A stretch of DNA of 64,000 nucleotides from Rhodospirillales bacterium. Lineage in GTDB: Bacteria > Pseudomonadota > Alphaproteobacteria > Rhodospirillales > UBA2165. The notes under the pieces are model-generated. The model did not search any database, was not told the origin of the DNA, and saw only the letters and a list, made by a program, of their open reading frames with translations. Position 1 is the first letter of the stretch; every line of letters starts with the position of its first letter. Below are positions 43,389 to 48,303 of this stretch, piece by piece. The stretch lies in contig JAJECC010000071.1 of NCBI GenBank assembly GCA_022822205.1, positions 3,283 through 67,282 of the forward strand. Direction: 5' to 3'. The position numbers and the translations under genes are program-made.

Positions 43389-44348
43389 TTAGTGGGCGGC
43401 GGCGGGCGCCGGTTCGTCCCGGTGGGTCGGTCCGATACCGGCCTCTGCGAGGATTACCGGGATCGTCTCTTCCTGGCGGATGGCCATGATATGGACCCCG
43501 GCGATGCCGTCAATCTCTCTGAATTGCTGGATCAGCTCGACGCAGACGCGCCGCCCTTCAGCCCGTTCGTCGTCCGCCCGGTCGAGCCGGTCGACGATCT
43601 CGTCGGGGATAATCACCCCCCAGAGATTTTCGCGCATCCAGCGGGCCGATTTCGCCGAGCGGATGGGACCGATCCCCATGAGCACGAACAGCTGGTCGGT
43701 GGCCCCGTGGTCCCGCAGCCGTTCGATGTAGCGCTCGACGATTCCGGCATCGAAACAGAACTGGGTCTGCACGAACTGCGCCCCTGCTGCCGCCTTGGCG
43801 AGCAACCGCTCCGGCGTCCAGCCGGGCTCCGGATCGATGGGCGTATCGGCGGCGCCGATGAACAGGTCCGGCGGCGAGGCGATCTCGCGGCCCGACAGGA
43901 TCGTGCCGTCGTCCCGCATCTGCCGGGCCATGTCGATGAAGGCGCCGGTATCCAGATCGAATACCGGCTTGGCATCGGGCTGGTCGCCCTGTTTGGGGTC
44001 GTCGCCGCCCAGGATCATCACGTTGCGCACGCCGAAGGCGCCGGCGCCGAGCAAGTCGCTCTGCAGGGCAATCCGGTTGCGGTCCCGGCAGGTGAACTGA
44101 AGCACTGGTTCGATGCCGTGCTGCATCATCAACCCGGCCGCGGCCACGTTGGAGAGGTGGGCGCGGGCACCGGCGCCGTCGGTGACGTTGACCGCATCGA
44201 CGATGCCCCTGAACGGCAGGGCCTTGTCCAGAAGGTCATCGGAACTCGCCGAGAGCGGCGGCGTCAGTTCGGCCGTTACGGCGAATTCGCCGTTGAGCAG
44301 CGTGCGGACGAGGCCGGCTTCGACGGGAAGAGAGGTGTCCGGCGGCAT
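43389..44348 (-). CDS. metF: Methylenetetrahydrofolate reductase family protein
   Basis: AELTPP, NVTD, TCRDRNRIALQ, LGGDD and FVQTQ. Confidence 0.88.
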   Translation of the reverse strand: MPPDTSLPVEAGLVRTLLNGEFAVTAELTPPLSASSDDLLDKALPFRGIVDAVNVTDGAGARAHLSNVAAAGLMMQHGIEPVLQFTCRDRNRIALQSDLLGAGAFGVRNVMILGGDDPKQGDQPDAKPVFDLDTGAFIDMARQMRDDGTILSGREIASPPDLFIGAADTPIDPEPGWTPERLLAKAAAGAQFVQTQFCFDAGIVERYIERLRDHGATDQLFVLMGIGPIRSAKSARWMRENLWGVIIPDEIVDRLDRADDERAEGRRVCVELIQQFREIDGIAGVHIMAIRQEETIPVILAEAGIGPTHRDEPAPAAAH

Positions 44349-44351
44349 TGG

Positions 44352-45809
44352 CTAGCTCCGTTTCCGCGAGACCACGAAAGATTCATTGAGAAACCAGAGG
44401 CCGCCGTGCTGTTTCAGCGCTTCCTCGGTCGCCGTCAGGTAGTGGCCGTCGGCGATCGCGTCGGCGATCAGGTGATCCTCGATCTGATAGACGTAGATGG
44501 CGGCGTTCCAGGCGGCGAACAGGGTCGACGTGCCGATGCTCTCGGTCCCGATTTCACTCGGCAGGGTGTGCATGTCGTAGCGGAACAAGGACCGGTTGTC
44601 GGCGTAGGTGTTGAACCGGAGATCCCGCTCGGACTTGCCGAGGGTTTGCTTCAGCACCTTCATCAATTCGTGCCGGCTCGACTGGTTGAGCTCCCGGCCG
44701 GGCCAAATGCCCTGAATGATGTCGAGGCCCGGGTCACGGCCATAGGAATGGATGCCCAGCATCCGTCCCCCCGGCGCCAGGGATTTGGCCAGCGGGGCAA
44801 GGACCTTCTCGACCTTGAAATCCGGGCTCATGCTGGCGCGGTAGGGCTGGGAGGCCAGGATCATGTCGTACTGGCCCTGGAACCGGCCGGGGCGCGGGAT
44901 GATGGGATCGACCACGAAGCGCTGATCCTCGCGATAGATCACCATGACCGACGGCCGCTCATAGAGCGGGTTGCCGGTCTTCTTCGATGCCTTGACCTTC
45001 CAGCCTTCGGACAGGATGGGTTTCAGCGATTTGATCTGCTCGTCGAATTCGTGGGACGTGGTGCCGGTGAGCGGCACCTCGTGCCAATTGAGGGCGGCCG
45101 CCGACGTGACGCTGCCCGGCATCAGCTGCGGCGCCTCGCTGTAATAGAGGTTGGTGACCACCAAAACCGTCGCCGGGTGTTCGAAGAACCGGTCGGACAT
45201 CTTTTCGAGACTGAGGCGTACGTCCTCGAGGCTGATTTCCTTGCCGACGATAACGAATGGGACCGTGGAATGGCGGCGGTGCATGTCGCGCATCACCCGG
45301 GTGAGCACGGTGCCGTCGCCCATGCCCGCATCGAACAGCCTGAGCGCTGGCGGTTTGGGGTGAACCTGGGCGAGCTCCATGCCGACGCGCTCGGCGACCA
45401 CCCACTTCTCCGAGCAGGTGTTGACGAACATCAGGTATTTCTGGCGGTTGTCGTAGAACCGGAACGCCTTGGGTTCGCCGCTTTCGTCGAGGGGCGTCAC
45501 CCGCGAATAGACCTTGGCTTTTTTCTTTCCACCGGCGCCATTGTCTTTCGGCGCCGCCTCGCGCTTCAGGGGCAGGTTGTCGGGCAAGGCCGATGATTCC
45601 GAGCCGTTGCCCTTGGCCGCCGCAGGCTCGTCCTTGGTCATGTATTTGCGCACCCGGTCGACGGTGCGCATGGTAACCCCGCGCCCGGCGCGCAGGCGGC
45701 TGACGAACTTGCCGTCGTTGACGGTGAGTCGGCCGAAGGTCGACTCGGCGATGGCGTTATCGCGGCAATAATCCTCGATCTCGCCGATGAACGTCTGAAT
45801 GTCTTCCAT
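44352..45809 (-). CDS. Hypothetical: N-terminal Cro-like HTH fused to a class I SAM-methyltransferase-like domain
   Basis: STFGR...DGKFVSRLRAGRGVT N-domain; low-complexity linker; FDAGMGDG motif I, GKEIS acidic residue, DMILASQPY motif-IV-like. Confidence 0.7.
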   Translation of the reverse strand: MEDIQTFIGEIEDYCRDNAIAESTFGRLTVNDGKFVSRLRAGRGVTMRTVDRVRKYMTKDEPAAAKGNGSESSALPDNLPLKREAAPKDNGAGGKKKAKVYSRVTPLDESGEPKAFRFYDNRQKYLMFVNTCSEKWVVAERVGMELAQVHPKPPALRLFDAGMGDGTVLTRVMRDMHRRHSTVPFVIVGKEISLEDVRLSLEKMSDRFFEHPATVLVVTNLYYSEAPQLMPGSVTSAAALNWHEVPLTGTTSHEFDEQIKSLKPILSEGWKVKASKKTGNPLYERPSVMVIYREDQRFVVDPIIPRPGRFQGQYDMILASQPYRASMSPDFKVEKVLAPLAKSLAPGGRMLGIHSYGRDPGLDIIQGIWPGRELNQSSRHELMKVLKQTLGKSERDLRFNTYADNRSLFRYDMHTLPSEIGTESIGTSTLFAAWNAAIYVYQIEDHLIADAIADGHYLTATEEALKQHGGLWFLNESFVVSRKRS

Positions 45810-45850
45810 TGCCCAAGTCTCCGACTTGGCGAACAAGAGAGTCAACGAAA

Positions 45851-45915
45851 ATCCCATTAATTTAGTGGGATAAGTTAGTGGGATTTATCCTACATACGAT
45901 AAGGGGGAGTGGGAT
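45851..45915. promoter_or_regulatory. Operator-like palindrome and half-site array in a divergent promoter
   Basis: ATCCCATTAA-T-TTAGTGGGAT (9/10 arms), a third TTAGTGGGAT at 45875-45884, and AGTGGGAT at 45908-45915. Confidence 0.75.
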
Positions 45916-45987
45916 TGACGTGGGCTGTTTCGGTCACTCGAAAATTCCGTATATTGAGACTTCCGAATACCGTGGTAGGTTGTCTGC

Positions 45988-48303
45988 ATGGACGCAATCA
46001 CCCCGAAACCCCTGATCAATCCGGCCTTTGACGACGGCAGCACCGCGCTGCCCGATGGCCGGTACAAATCGGCCTGCCGAATGTGTCATGGGGGCTGCGG
46101 CACCATCATGCACGTCGAAAACGGCAAGCTGGTCCACATCGACGGCGATCCCGACAACCCGATGAACCGGGGCAAGCTGTGTCCCTTGGGAGCGGCCAGC
46201 CTGGAGCAGGTCTACAACCCGTCCCGGCTCAAATATCCCATGCGCCGGGCCGGCGGACGGGGCGAGGGGAAGTGGGAGCGCATCTCCTGGGACGAGGCCT
46301 ACGACGAGATGTGCGCCAAGATTCGCGAGGCCACCGAGCGCGACGGCGCCGAGAGCATCTGGGTGGGCACCGGGACCGGACGCCACCACTTCGGCTATGT
46401 CTCCCGCTTCGCCAACGCCATCGGCACCCCCAACTGGTGCGAGCCGGGCACCGCTCAATGCTTCCGGCCCAGGGTTCACGGATCGATCATCACCATGGGC
46501 CAGCTGCCCATCTGCACCTATACCAACGAGGCGCAGCCGGACCTGATCCTGTTCTGGGGCCACAACCCCATCTATTCCGGGCCCGATGGCGAATTGGGAT
46601 TCGGGGTAAAGGATGCCCTGGCCCGCAAGCCCAAGATCATCGTCGTCGACCCGCGCGAGACCATGCTCGCCAAGCGCGCCGACTACTTTCTCCAGCTTCG
46701 CCCCGGCACCGACGATGCGCTGGGGCTCGCCATGCTCAACGTGATCATCGGCGAGGAGCTCTACGACAAGGAGTTCGTCGAGAAGTGGACCCACGGCTTC
46801 GGCCGGCTCGCCGAACGGGTCGAGCGGTATACGCCCGAGTGGGCCGAACCCATTACATGGGTGAAGGCGGACGACATCCGGGGCGCGGCGCGGCTCTATG
46901 CCGAGACCAAGCCCTCCATGCTGGAGTGGGGATGCGCCATCGAACACACGCCGGCCTGTTTCCAGACCGTCCGGGCGCTGCTCTGCCTGCCGTCGATCAC
47001 CGGCAATATCGACCAGCCGGGGGGCTGGGCGTTCGGCATGATGGGCATCGCGCCGCTGCCGCAGCTGTTCGACAAGATGCCCATGGAGCAGCAGCAGAAG
47101 CGCCTGGGCTACGACGATTACAAGGTGCTGTCGGGCGAGTTGGCGCAGCTGCCGTCGGCCCACATCCCGAGCATCTTCGACGCCATCCGGACCGGGAAAC
47201 CCTATCCGGTCACCACCGGACTGATCTTCGGCAACAATGCGCTCTCCACCTACGGCGAGGTGGACGTGGTCTACGAGACCCTGATGGCGCTCGATTACCT
47301 GATGGTCGCCGAGCTCTACATGACGCCGACCGCCGAGCTTGCCGACCTGGTGCTGCCGGTGTCCACCTGGGCCGAGGTGGACGCGCTGCCCGCCGTGCCG
47401 TTTTACGGCCAGAACGTGCTGCTCGCCCAGCAGAAGGTGGTGCAGGTGGGCGAGTGCGTGCAGGACGAAGTGATCATGACCGAAATCTGCCGCCGCCTCG
47501 GCACCGAGTTCGGCCGGGAAAGCCTGGAAGAGGTCTACGATTCCATGCTGGCGCCCAAGATGGGCATGAGCTTCGCCGAGCTGCGGGAGAGGGGATTCGT
47601 CCAGCCCGAGTTCAAGTACCGCAAGTACGAGGAGAACGGCTTCAACACGCCGACCGGCAAGATCGAGCTTTACTCCACCCGGATGGAGGAGTGGGGGGAC
47701 GACCCGCTGCCCTATTTCGAGGAGCCGCCGGAAAGTCCCTACGCGACGCCGGAGTTGGCCGAGGAGTATCCCTACATCCTGATCACCGGCGCGCGGCTGC
47801 CCACATATTTCCAGTCCGAGTACCGGCAGATGCCGACGCTGCGGCGCGGGCGGCCGGAGCCCGAATGCGAACTTCACCCGGAGACGGCGGCCGAACTTGG
47901 ACTGGAGCAGGGGGACTGGGTGTCCATCGAAACCAAGCGGGGCAAATGCCGCCAGAAGGTGCGCATCTTCGAGGGAATCGATCCCCGGGTCATCCATGCC
48001 CAGCACGGCTGGTGGTTCCCGGAGGAGGACGGGAGCCCGGACCACGGCATCTGGCGATCAAACGCCAACACGCTCACTTCCATGCAGCCGCCCTACTGCA
48101 AGTCCATGGGCACCTATCAGCTCCGCGCGCTCTTGTGCAAAGTGGTCAAGGCCGGCGAGGCGGAAGAACCCTGGCGACCGCCCCACATCGCCGCCATGGA
48201 CGGCAGGTGGCGCTCCAACGTCGCGGAGGTACAGGACTGGGACGAGGCCGAGATCAAGGCCTGGCGCGAGATGCGCGGCGGCATGAAACAGCGCCGGGTT
48301 TAG
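45988..48303 (+). CDS. Acetylene-hydratase-like Mo/W-bisPGD enzyme, stand-alone and cytoplasmic
   Basis: CRMCHGGC-x27-C, WERISWDEA, Cys ligand candidate in TAQCF, LRPGTDDAL, TPTGKIELYS and HAQHGWW. Confidence 0.88.
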   Translation: MDAITPKPLINPAFDDGSTALPDGRYKSACRMCHGGCGTIMHVENGKLVHIDGDPDNPMNRGKLCPLGAASLEQVYNPSRLKYPMRRAGGRGEGKWERISWDEAYDEMCAKIREATERDGAESIWVGTGTGRHHFGYVSRFANAIGTPNWCEPGTAQCFRPRVHGSIITMGQLPICTYTNEAQPDLILFWGHNPIYSGPDGELGFGVKDALARKPKIIVVDPRETMLAKRADYFLQLRPGTDDALGLAMLNVIIGEELYDKEFVEKWTHGFGRLAERVERYTPEWAEPITWVKADDIRGAARLYAETKPSMLEWGCAIEHTPACFQTVRALLCLPSITGNIDQPGGWAFGMMGIAPLPQLFDKMPMEQQQKRLGYDDYKVLSGELAQLPSAHIPSIFDAIRTGKPYPVTTGLIFGNNALSTYGEVDVVYETLMALDYLMVAELYMTPTAELADLVLPVSTWAEVDALPAVPFYGQNVLLAQQKVVQVGECVQDEVIMTEICRRLGTEFGRESLEEVYDSMLAPKMGMSFAELRERGFVQPEFKYRKYEENGFNTPTGKIELYSTRMEEWGDDPLPYFEEPPESPYATPELAEEYPYILITGARLPTYFQSEYRQMPTLRRGRPEPECELHPETAAELGLEQGDWVSIETKRGKCRQKVRIFEGIDPRVIHAQHGWWFPEEDGSPDHGIWRSNANTLTSMQPPYCKSMGTYQLRALLCKVVKAGEAEEPWRPPHIAAMDGRWRSNVAEVQDWDEAEIKAWREMRGGMKQRRV

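Follow-up and report, generated by a model that had tools for sequence, protein, structure and literature searches.

The window analysed here is a stretch of 64,000 nucleotides from a Rhodospirillales bacterium (GenBank assembly GCA_022822205.1, contig JAJECC010000071.1, positions 3,283 to 67,282 of the forward strand), and the element in question is an array of short half-sites in the 178-bp gap between two divergent genes, one starting at 45809 on the minus strand and the other with an ATG at 45988 on the plus strand. The minus strand carries, in order, a gene for a 485-residue protein with a predicted helix-turn-helix (HTH) head and a methyltransferase-like body, a methylenetetrahydrofolate reductase (MTHFR)-family gene, purU and a major facilitator superfamily (MFS) transporter gene, and the plus strand carries a gene for a molybdopterin oxidoreductase (hereafter the Mo enzyme). 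Comparison with orthologous loci suggests that the array is probably the operator of the adjacent HTH protein, controlling the gene for this protein together with the MTHFR-family gene.

The half-site array

The original prediction, made from the letters of the sequence alone, had described a 21-bp palindrome with one mismatch, a third perfect half-site and a fourth partial one, all lying in an AT-rich gap, and each of these was found. The palindrome consists of ATCCCATTAA (45851-45860), a single T and TTAGTGGGAT (45862-45871), a second perfect copy of TTAGTGGGAT occupies 45875-45884 and starts 13 bp past the first, and the partial site AGTGGGAT lies at 45908-45915. The GC content of the gap is 46% and falls to 33% in the core containing the boxes, against 64.5% for the window. 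In all, six half-sites of the form (A/G)TGGG(A/C)/TCCCA(C/T) are present within the gap (Table 1), and from 45840 the plus strand reads AGTCAAC GAAA ATCCCAT TAATTTA GTGGGAT AAGTTA GTGGGAT TT ATCCTAC ... GA GTGGGAT TGAC GTGGGCT. Two of the six (H1 and H-1) had been overlooked at first reading, as had a TTGAC -35 element (AGTCAA on the plus strand) directly next to the array.

The four core half-sites, H4 to H1, have the consensus (T/G)CCCA(C/T) and the orientation <- -> -> <-. Their centres are 10-13 bp apart, or about one helical turn, so that all four would face much the same side of the helix. They make up two palindromes of opposite half-site polarity, GTGGGA-N4-TCCCAC as against TCCCAC-N7-GTGGGA. 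Judged by alignment with other loci, the 21-bp palindrome first noticed is the widely conserved proximal pair H3/H4, and the third half-site is H2, which pairs with H1.

Species of the genus differ in the spacers but not in the half-sites or AGTCAA, a classic phylogenetic footprint. The block AAAATCCCATT containing H4 is invariant across all 7 species, as are AGTGGGAT at H3, CCTACA at H1 and GTGGGA at H0, and H-1 is kept in 6 of the 7. The palindrome TTTCG-N6-CGAAA (45928-45943) was considered as a second operator and dropped, its right arm not being conserved within the genus.

Table 1. Features of the intergenic array and adjoining genes. Positions are those of the window; distances are counted from the predicted transcription start of the gene for the 485-residue protein.
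Feature	Position	Strand	Sequence	Distance	Remarks
Gene for the 485-residue protein	44352-45809	-			HTH head, linker of ~55 residues, body with class I S-adenosylmethionine (SAM)-methyltransferase-like GxGxG motif
Four-helix XRE/Cro-type HTH domain (predicted), codons 1-60	45630-45809	-			Presumed reader of the half-sites
-35 element	45840-45845	-	TTGACT		Promoter of the HTH-methyltransferase-like gene; AGTCAA invariant in genus; half-sites phased to TTGAC
-10 element (inferred)	45816-45821	-	GAGACT		18-bp spacer; ATG 6 nt later
H4	45851-45857		ATCCCAT on +, ATGGGAT in gene orientation	~-42 to -48	Promoter-proximal box
H3	45865-45871		GTGGGAT	~-56 to -62	With H4 forms the 21-bp palindrome TCCCAC-N7-GTGGGA (gene orientation)
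H2	45878-45884		GTGGGAT	~-69 to -75	Direct repeat of H3, 13-bp period; inverted partner of H4 at N22
H1	45887-45893		ATCCTAC	~-78 to -84	Differs from ATCCCAC at one position; pairs with H2 as the distal palindrome GTAGGA-N4-TCCCAC (gene orientation)
H0	45909-45915		GTGGGAT	~-100 to -106	Genus-specific; the partial fourth site of the original prediction
H-1	45920-45926		GTGGGCT		Genus-specific; 11 bp from H0; abuts putative -35 of the Mo-enzyme gene promoter
Invariant block	45943-45959	+	AATTCCGTATATTGAGA		Contains TATATT, a -10-like hexamer, 33 nt ahead of the Mo-enzyme ATG (45988)
MTHFR-family gene	43389-44348	-			3 bp downstream of the gene for the 485-residue protein; Pfam PF02219, E = 2.8e-37

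Conservation upstream of orthologous genes

The region upstream of the gene was compared in 96 loci, 16 of them orthologues from the same family and 80 from metagenome-assembled genomes labelled as alpha-, beta- or gammaproteobacteria; 88 of the loci are non-redundant. A half-site was counted as CCCAY or RTGGG, and four or more half-sites in 60 bp were taken as a dense cluster. Half-site density upstream of the gene was 3.61 per 150 bp compared with 0.52 locus-wide over the 88 loci, and three or more half-sites were present upstream in 70/88 loci, the figure for random windows being 3.5%. The 745 kb of loci contained 46 dense clusters, 45 of which fall at most 260 bp upstream of this gene. The paired arrangements behave likewise: CCCAY-N7-RTGGG was found upstream of the gene in 47/88 loci (0.011 per 150 bp locus-wide), CCCA-N21..23-TGGG in 71/88 and TGGGN-N4-NCCCA in 43/88, and some relatives that do not have H3 keep CCCA-N22-TGGG plus the distal palindrome. 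The motif is present upstream of the orthologues in three proteobacterial classes and keeps a fixed place relative to the promoter, regardless of which gene lies alongside. Only in the genus of the window (8/96 loci) is this divergent gene that of the Mo enzyme, and the other upstream neighbours are mutually unrelated. On this comparison the array belongs to the gene for the 485-residue protein and not to the Mo enzyme.

Promoter architecture

As an anchor for alignment we used the TTGAC nearest the start codon, chosen without using the boxes. It was found 30-110 nt before the start codon in 77/88 loci, and these 77 loci were anchored. Counted from TTGAC, half-sites gathered in peaks at -16 (RTGGG, 32 loci), -28 (CCCAY, 34), -40 (CCCAY, 31) and -51 (RTGGG, 19), to which H4, H3, H2 and H1, respectively, correspond; in the window's genus the same four sites lie 4 bp nearer the -35 (-12, -24 and -37 for the first three). 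Weaker CCCAY peaks at -60, -67 and -79 come from other lineages. Both palindromes, TCCCAC-N7-GTGGGA and GTGGGA-N4-TCCCAC, keep a fixed phase with the -35 in most of the 88 loci, and the majority consensus reads TGGGATAT-TCCCAC-TAT..TG-CCCAC-N7-GTGGGC...ATTGTGGTTGACC (3' part ATTGTGG-TTGACC), with TGTAAT-like hexamers 17 bp after TTGACC. The array ends ~11 bp before TTGAC in this majority architecture and 5 bp before it in the window's genus, where H4 is separated from the TTGACT hexamer by 45846-45850.

The position of the -10 element was assigned from other lineages, which have GACACT, GATACT, TAGAAT or TGTAAT 17 bp after TTGAC. This would put the transcription start on the A of the ATG, at about 45809. 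The distance from TTGAC to the start codon is 33-38 nt in 17 of the 77 anchored loci, from several unrelated lineages, and we therefore infer a leaderless mRNA. Other lineages have leaders of 45-110 nt with Shine-Dalgarno sequences. A perfect 7-bp inverted repeat, CCAAGTC-N3-GACTTGG (45813-45829), which is partly conserved in the genus, was also observed between the -35 and the start codon, overlapping the assigned -10.

Occurrence of the array in genomes

The exact 10-mer TTAGTGGGAT has two copies in the whole 3.76-Mb genome, both in this gap, and ARTGGGAT boxes less than 150 bp apart occur nowhere else in it. The shorter GTGGGAT is present in 221 copies and is clustered nowhere else, and the single palindromes CCCAY-N7-RTGGG and TRGGA-N4-TCCYA occur in the same genome at background level, without companions. 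A genome scan with the motif, which had been proposed in the original prediction as the way to define a regulon, returned the full array as unique in its own genome and in each of five others, where the composite array was found once, only at this gene. The extra single palindromes in those five genomes lie within coding sequence or are isolated.

Scanning 401 genomes of the class gave 25 matches, compared with ~14 for a reversed-pattern control, and among the 25 only four were operator-like, two of them directly upstream of an orthologue, one coding and one an unexplained intergenic cluster. With a loose variable-gap pattern the background was too high to define a regulon. In one distant genome four more half-sites (GCCCAC CTGGGA TCCCAC ... 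GTGGGA) form a second cluster at ~1490-1540 of locus L110 (G104:C166:4090-4140), on another contig than the HTH protein gene and without an adjacent TTGAC. A possible start (MTLDPQSAWVLELVEKAG...), unconfirmed as a gene and inside a longer open frame of 390 residues, follows ~110 nt downstream, and the cluster could be a rare extra target.

The 485-residue protein

The longest open reading frame of the gene, from 45857, would run through the first box, but orthologues align from a methionine at 45809, which is taken as the true start. The original prediction had given the resulting protein the name of an HTH-methyltransferase. The HTH head is confidently predicted: AlphaFold2 modelling of residues 1-62 with 79 sequences gave a predicted local distance difference test score (pLDDT) of 91.8 and a predicted template modelling (TM) score of 0.78, with helices at 4-17, 22-30, 35-40 and 47-58. 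Among the top 50 Foldseek matches of this model in the PDB were HipB, C.Esp1396I, C.AhdI, ClgR and SinR (ranks 1-5, 6, 9, 18 and 50), all of them XRE-type DNA binders, with probabilities up to 0.99 and TM scores of ~0.7, and most of the remaining matches were HTH DNA-binding domains. On the model, the head has a lambda-repressor-like DNA-binding fold, the fold match being good though not statistically decisive. Little or no variation is seen at residues E22, T24, F25, G26, R27, N31, D32, G33, K34, R38 and R40.

The methyltransferase part of the name draws on the GxGxG motif of the body (LFDAGMGDGTVL) and on one source, which labels a homologue 'class I SAM-dependent methyltransferase'. The 485-residue protein had no Pfam or NCBIfam match and no PDB sequence match, including with a profile of the 79 sequences, and no DNA-methyltransferase domain was detected in the body with Pfam. 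The linker (about residues 60-115) is variable in sequence, has a low-confidence model and is presumably flexible. Full-length AlphaFold2 modelling with 13 sequences gave a pLDDT of 46.5 and was unusable outside residues 1-60. Homologues number at least 8000 in the databases, almost all unnamed, and 583 loci were counted among species-representative genomes. In a single clade, of five loci, the HTH is changed, APTTFGRKAMGDGRF replacing AESTFGRxAVNDGKF (NDGK to GDGR), and the upstream region of these loci has 0-2 half-sites compared with a mean of 3.94 elsewhere.

Two further kinds of related protein were encountered. A paralogue is encoded elsewhere in the same genome, outside the window (G000:C120:18988-19007; see also loci L020, L021 and L024), and the gap that it shares with its divergent neighbour contains a tandem TAATGGGCA-GA-TAATGGGCA of 11-bp period, whose ATGGGC half-site is that of the operators of distant orthologues. 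The pattern ATGGGCA-N4-6-ATGGGCA has two matches in the genome, this tandem and C154:9544, which has a GC-rich spacer. In 4/6 genomes of the genus the paralogue is divergent from a gene whose N-terminus, as we take it, recalls a tetrahydrofolate-dependent aryl O-demethylase (LigM/DesA). There are also two near-identical proteins of 269 residues (G000:C5:7602-7760 and G000:C67:5078-5233; loci L028 and L029) with two tandem domains distantly like the head of the 485-residue protein (pattern FGxxxxxxxxFVxxLRxGxSPxLxTV) and, by eye, a C-terminal AlpA/excisionase-like HTH. Both probably belong to a repeated mobile element.

Gene neighbourhood

The MTHFR-family gene of the window is presumably co-transcribed with the gene for the 485-residue protein. 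An MTHFR-family gene lies immediately downstream in 72/96 loci, in two divergent types (39 and 33 loci). The second type (L075:5434-6354 and 32 other loci), from beta-like and other lineages, was missed by the window's own MTHFR query at E 1e-10, and once it is counted the gene pair is much more conserved than a first look suggested. The gene metK follows in 6 loci, and a MetE-like gene is found upstream in some. By gene order, the promoter beside the array would drive a conserved operon of putative regulator and MTHFR-family gene, belonging to the one-carbon/methyl cycle. Among the upstream neighbours in the 96 loci no other regulator gene is conserved adjacent to the array.

Reciprocal control of the divergent Mo-enzyme gene, which the original prediction had allowed for, found little support, given that this gene is the neighbour in a single genus. 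What speaks for it are the two genus-specific extra half-sites, H0 and H-1, beside the putative Mo-enzyme promoter. The block AATTCCGTATATTGAGA, unlike its flanks, does not vary at any of its 17 positions among the 7 species of the genus and is probably the core promoter of the Mo-enzyme gene. H-1 abuts its putative -35, 24-30 bp before the TATATT block. A role of H0 and H-1 in co-regulating the Mo-enzyme gene is weakly suggested by this arrangement, and such control may be possible in this genus only.

Interpretation and alternatives

The original prediction had taken the array as the cognate, autoregulatory site of the adjacent HTH fusion, and the comparison supports it: the motif stands at the orthologues, the protein has an HTH head and the array is unique. 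The adjacent protein is the most economical candidate for the binder because each genome examined has a single full array, no further regulator gene is conserved nearby, the head has an HTH fold and the boxes are lost where the HTH changes. The upstream neighbour is not conserved, and therefore no separate regulator travels with the site.

The following account of the binder and its oligomeric form, of its ligand, of repression or activation and of the leaderless transcript is inferred from these observations. The N-terminal XRE/Cro-type HTH, joined by a long linker to the SAM-methyltransferase-like body, would read the half-sites. The four core ones lie at about -42 to -84, just ahead of TTGAC, the -35 of a sigma-70-type promoter that serves this gene. 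Cooperative occupation of the array by an oligomer, probably a pair of dimers joined by their body domains, would determine the transcription of this gene and the MTHFR-family gene, which in the window are followed by purU and the MFS transporter gene. Ligand-dependent feedback on one-carbon/methyl-cycle genes would be the most likely logic. Given the opposite polarity of the two palindromes, the heads may be attached through the long linker to an oligomeric body, an arrangement shown for M.SsoII (PMC3978073).

Several points weigh against assigning the array to the adjacent protein in this manner. The Foldseek E-values for the head were 0.26 or greater and so not significant, as expected for a query of 62 residues, and Pfam found no family for residues 1-65 even at E <= 10, HTH models included. 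The joint change of the HTH and loss of boxes amounts to a single evolutionary event. Covariation between residue 35 (F/L) and the T/G flank of the half-site was concordant in 63/78 loci and was rejected as evidence, there being 5 changes on the tree and an independent-pairs sign test that was not significant. A paralogue of 38% identity with the same HTH contact residues (AESTFGRLAVNDGKLV) is present in the genus and could share the sites. An array that lies wholly upstream of the -35 is more typical of activators than of repressors. A single rigid symmetric dimer cannot read two palindromes of opposite polarity, which forces the assumption of a flexible linker. Finally, a strict sigma-70 consensus and terminator scan of 45700-46100 called nothing, and the -10 is poor in this genus.

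The alternative that survives best keeps the same protein and the same site and makes the protein an activator, which, bound at about -45 to -85, would recruit RNA polymerase, its ligand-bound or ligand-free form switching the operon on in the way of class I/II activators, of lambda CI at PRM or of controller proteins at their distal site. All four core half-sites lying upstream of the -35, with none overlapping the core promoter, would suit such a role, as would the weak -10 GAGACT with its 18-bp spacer, the lack of a called consensus promoter in this genus and the presence of activators (ClgR, C proteins) among the structural neighbours of the head. The majority promoter (TTGACC-N17-TGTAAT), however, is close to consensus, and promoters of that kind work without an activator. 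Directly next to TTGAC stands an invariant TTGTGG, which keeps the phase of the array and resembles a fifth, weak site over the -35, and in one lineage (L011, L012, L036 and L037) the inverted repeat is found just before the ribosome-binding site. BirA, NadR, PutA, BzdR and M.SsoII are all enzyme-fused DNA binders which repress their own promoters. Because of this analogy we lean slightly towards repression, the promoter features just given pointing the same way, and we regard activation as the unlikelier sign, though one to be taken seriously.

It is rather improbable that the boxes are bound by a regulator encoded elsewhere, such as a global methionine or one-carbon regulator, with the HTH fusion as a mere target. 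By inspection of 45840-45930 we found no MetR motif, no SahR/SamR motif and no tandem metboxes of MetJ. The methionine and SAM-cycle genes of Proteobacteria are indeed targets of the unlinked regulators MetJ, MetR, SahR and SamR (PMC4239095), but the motif described here is unlike the ATGAA-N5-TTCAT of MetR and unlike the palindromes of SahR and SamR with ATC-N10-GAT (PMC4239095). The full array is present once per genome and only at this gene, so that an unlinked regulator would have a single target which always includes the HTH protein; such a one-target regulon would be needed, and the boxes vanish exactly where the adjacent HTH changes.

That there is no protein operator here at all, the repeats being a chance product of AT-rich sequence, the remnant of a 13-bp tandem duplication, an RNA leader or riboswitch, or target sites of methylation, is very hard to credit: H2 and H3 do lie within a 13-bp tandem duplication, the region is AT-rich and the protein has a methyltransferase-like motif, but conservation and phasing hold across three classes and chance is excluded. 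As an RNA element the region had no Rfam match and no significant fold (z = -1.78), and the boxes are upstream of the -35 and hence outside the transcript. As a DNA-modification target it was rejected on account of the missing DNA-methyltransferase domain and because a genome-wide spread would be expected, yet the 221 copies of GTGGGAT are unclustered elsewhere.

Returning to the adjacent HTH protein as the binder, we tentatively suggest, with a good deal less confidence than we place in the operator itself, that it stands for a very widespread and hitherto unrecognised class of metabolite-sensing regulators or trigger enzymes in alpha-, beta- and gammaproteobacteria, composed of an XRE head, a disordered linker and a methyltransferase fold binding SAM or S-adenosylhomocysteine (SAH). 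Through these, transcription of the MTHFR gene (and in some lineages of metK) might respond to the cell's methylation state, by an unusual mode of binding in which four independently tethered heads occupy half-sites of mixed polarity on the same face of the DNA. If true, such a class would fill the role played elsewhere by MetJ, SahR or SAM/SAH riboswitches.

Comparison with known systems

Two components of the system are of kinds already known, namely an XRE-type autoregulator with promoter-adjacent operators and an HTH fused to a methyltransferase fold. The literature searched contained no description of the protein family, of the TCCCAC motif, of a four-site same-face array or of the link to MTHFR. 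The family is large, is without a Pfam or NCBIfam model and in most lineages precedes a gene whose product interconverts methylene- and methyl-tetrahydrofolate, and the conserved, position-locked operator makes of a hypothetical protein a directly testable regulatory system. Motif and gene pair together form a recognisable module for genome annotation.

The operator of the M.SsoII type is a single 15-bp palindrome, unlike the phased array of 4-6 half-sites found here upstream of the -35. M.SsoII and M.Ecl18kI, from restriction-modification systems, have an N-terminal HTH region of ~70 residues, a flexible linker and a methyltransferase domain, and proteins of this type bind an operator before their own gene, between divergent genes, and regulate themselves and a partner gene (PMC3978073, PMC2760811). 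The 485-residue protein resembles them in its predicted DNA-binding head and its linker, perhaps in a methyltransferase-like body, and in having the probable operator in front of its own gene. The M.SsoII type, however, are cytosine-5 DNA methyltransferases with a restriction endonuclease as partner, whereas the 485-residue protein is without a match to a DNA-methylase family and its partner is an MTHFR-family gene.

The controller (C) proteins C.Esp1396I and C.AhdI of restriction-modification systems (PDB 3clc, 3ufd and 1y7y) are among the best structural matches to the head. Their OL and OR are two adjacent dyad-symmetric sites beside their own -35, bound by two dimers, and the array described here is likewise beside its own -35; C-protein transcripts are also commonly leaderless, as would be that of the 485-residue protein. 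In contrast, C proteins stand alone and have ~80 residues, whereas the HTH of the 485-residue protein is fused to a body of 370 residues. C-box sequences are unrelated to TCCCAC, and the proximal C-box site overlaps the -35 where the array stops 5-11 bp short of it. The palindromes of the array differ further from OL and OR in their unequal spacing (N4 and N7) and opposite polarity.

BzdR (an XRE HTH with a shikimate-kinase-like domain), BirA, NadR and PutA show metabolite-tuned binding to several operator sites in a pathway promoter. They have a DNA-binding head fused to a metabolite-binding enzyme fold, as the 485-residue protein may have, and they differ from it in the family of the enzyme domain, in operator sequence and in pathway, which here is the one-carbon/methyl cycle. 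If the reading given above is true, the protein would be a new example of an enzyme-fold protein regulating its own operon.

With MetJ, MetR, SahR and SamR (PMC4239095) the system shares the class of target, methyl-cycle genes of the metF/metK type, and metabolite feedback as the probable logic. Those families (ribbon-helix-helix, LysR and ArsR) are unrelated to the 485-residue protein and control multi-operon regulons, as against an array that occurs once per genome. If true, the system would add to MetJ, MetR, SahR and SamR a further transcription-factor route to control of the methyl cycle in Proteobacteria.

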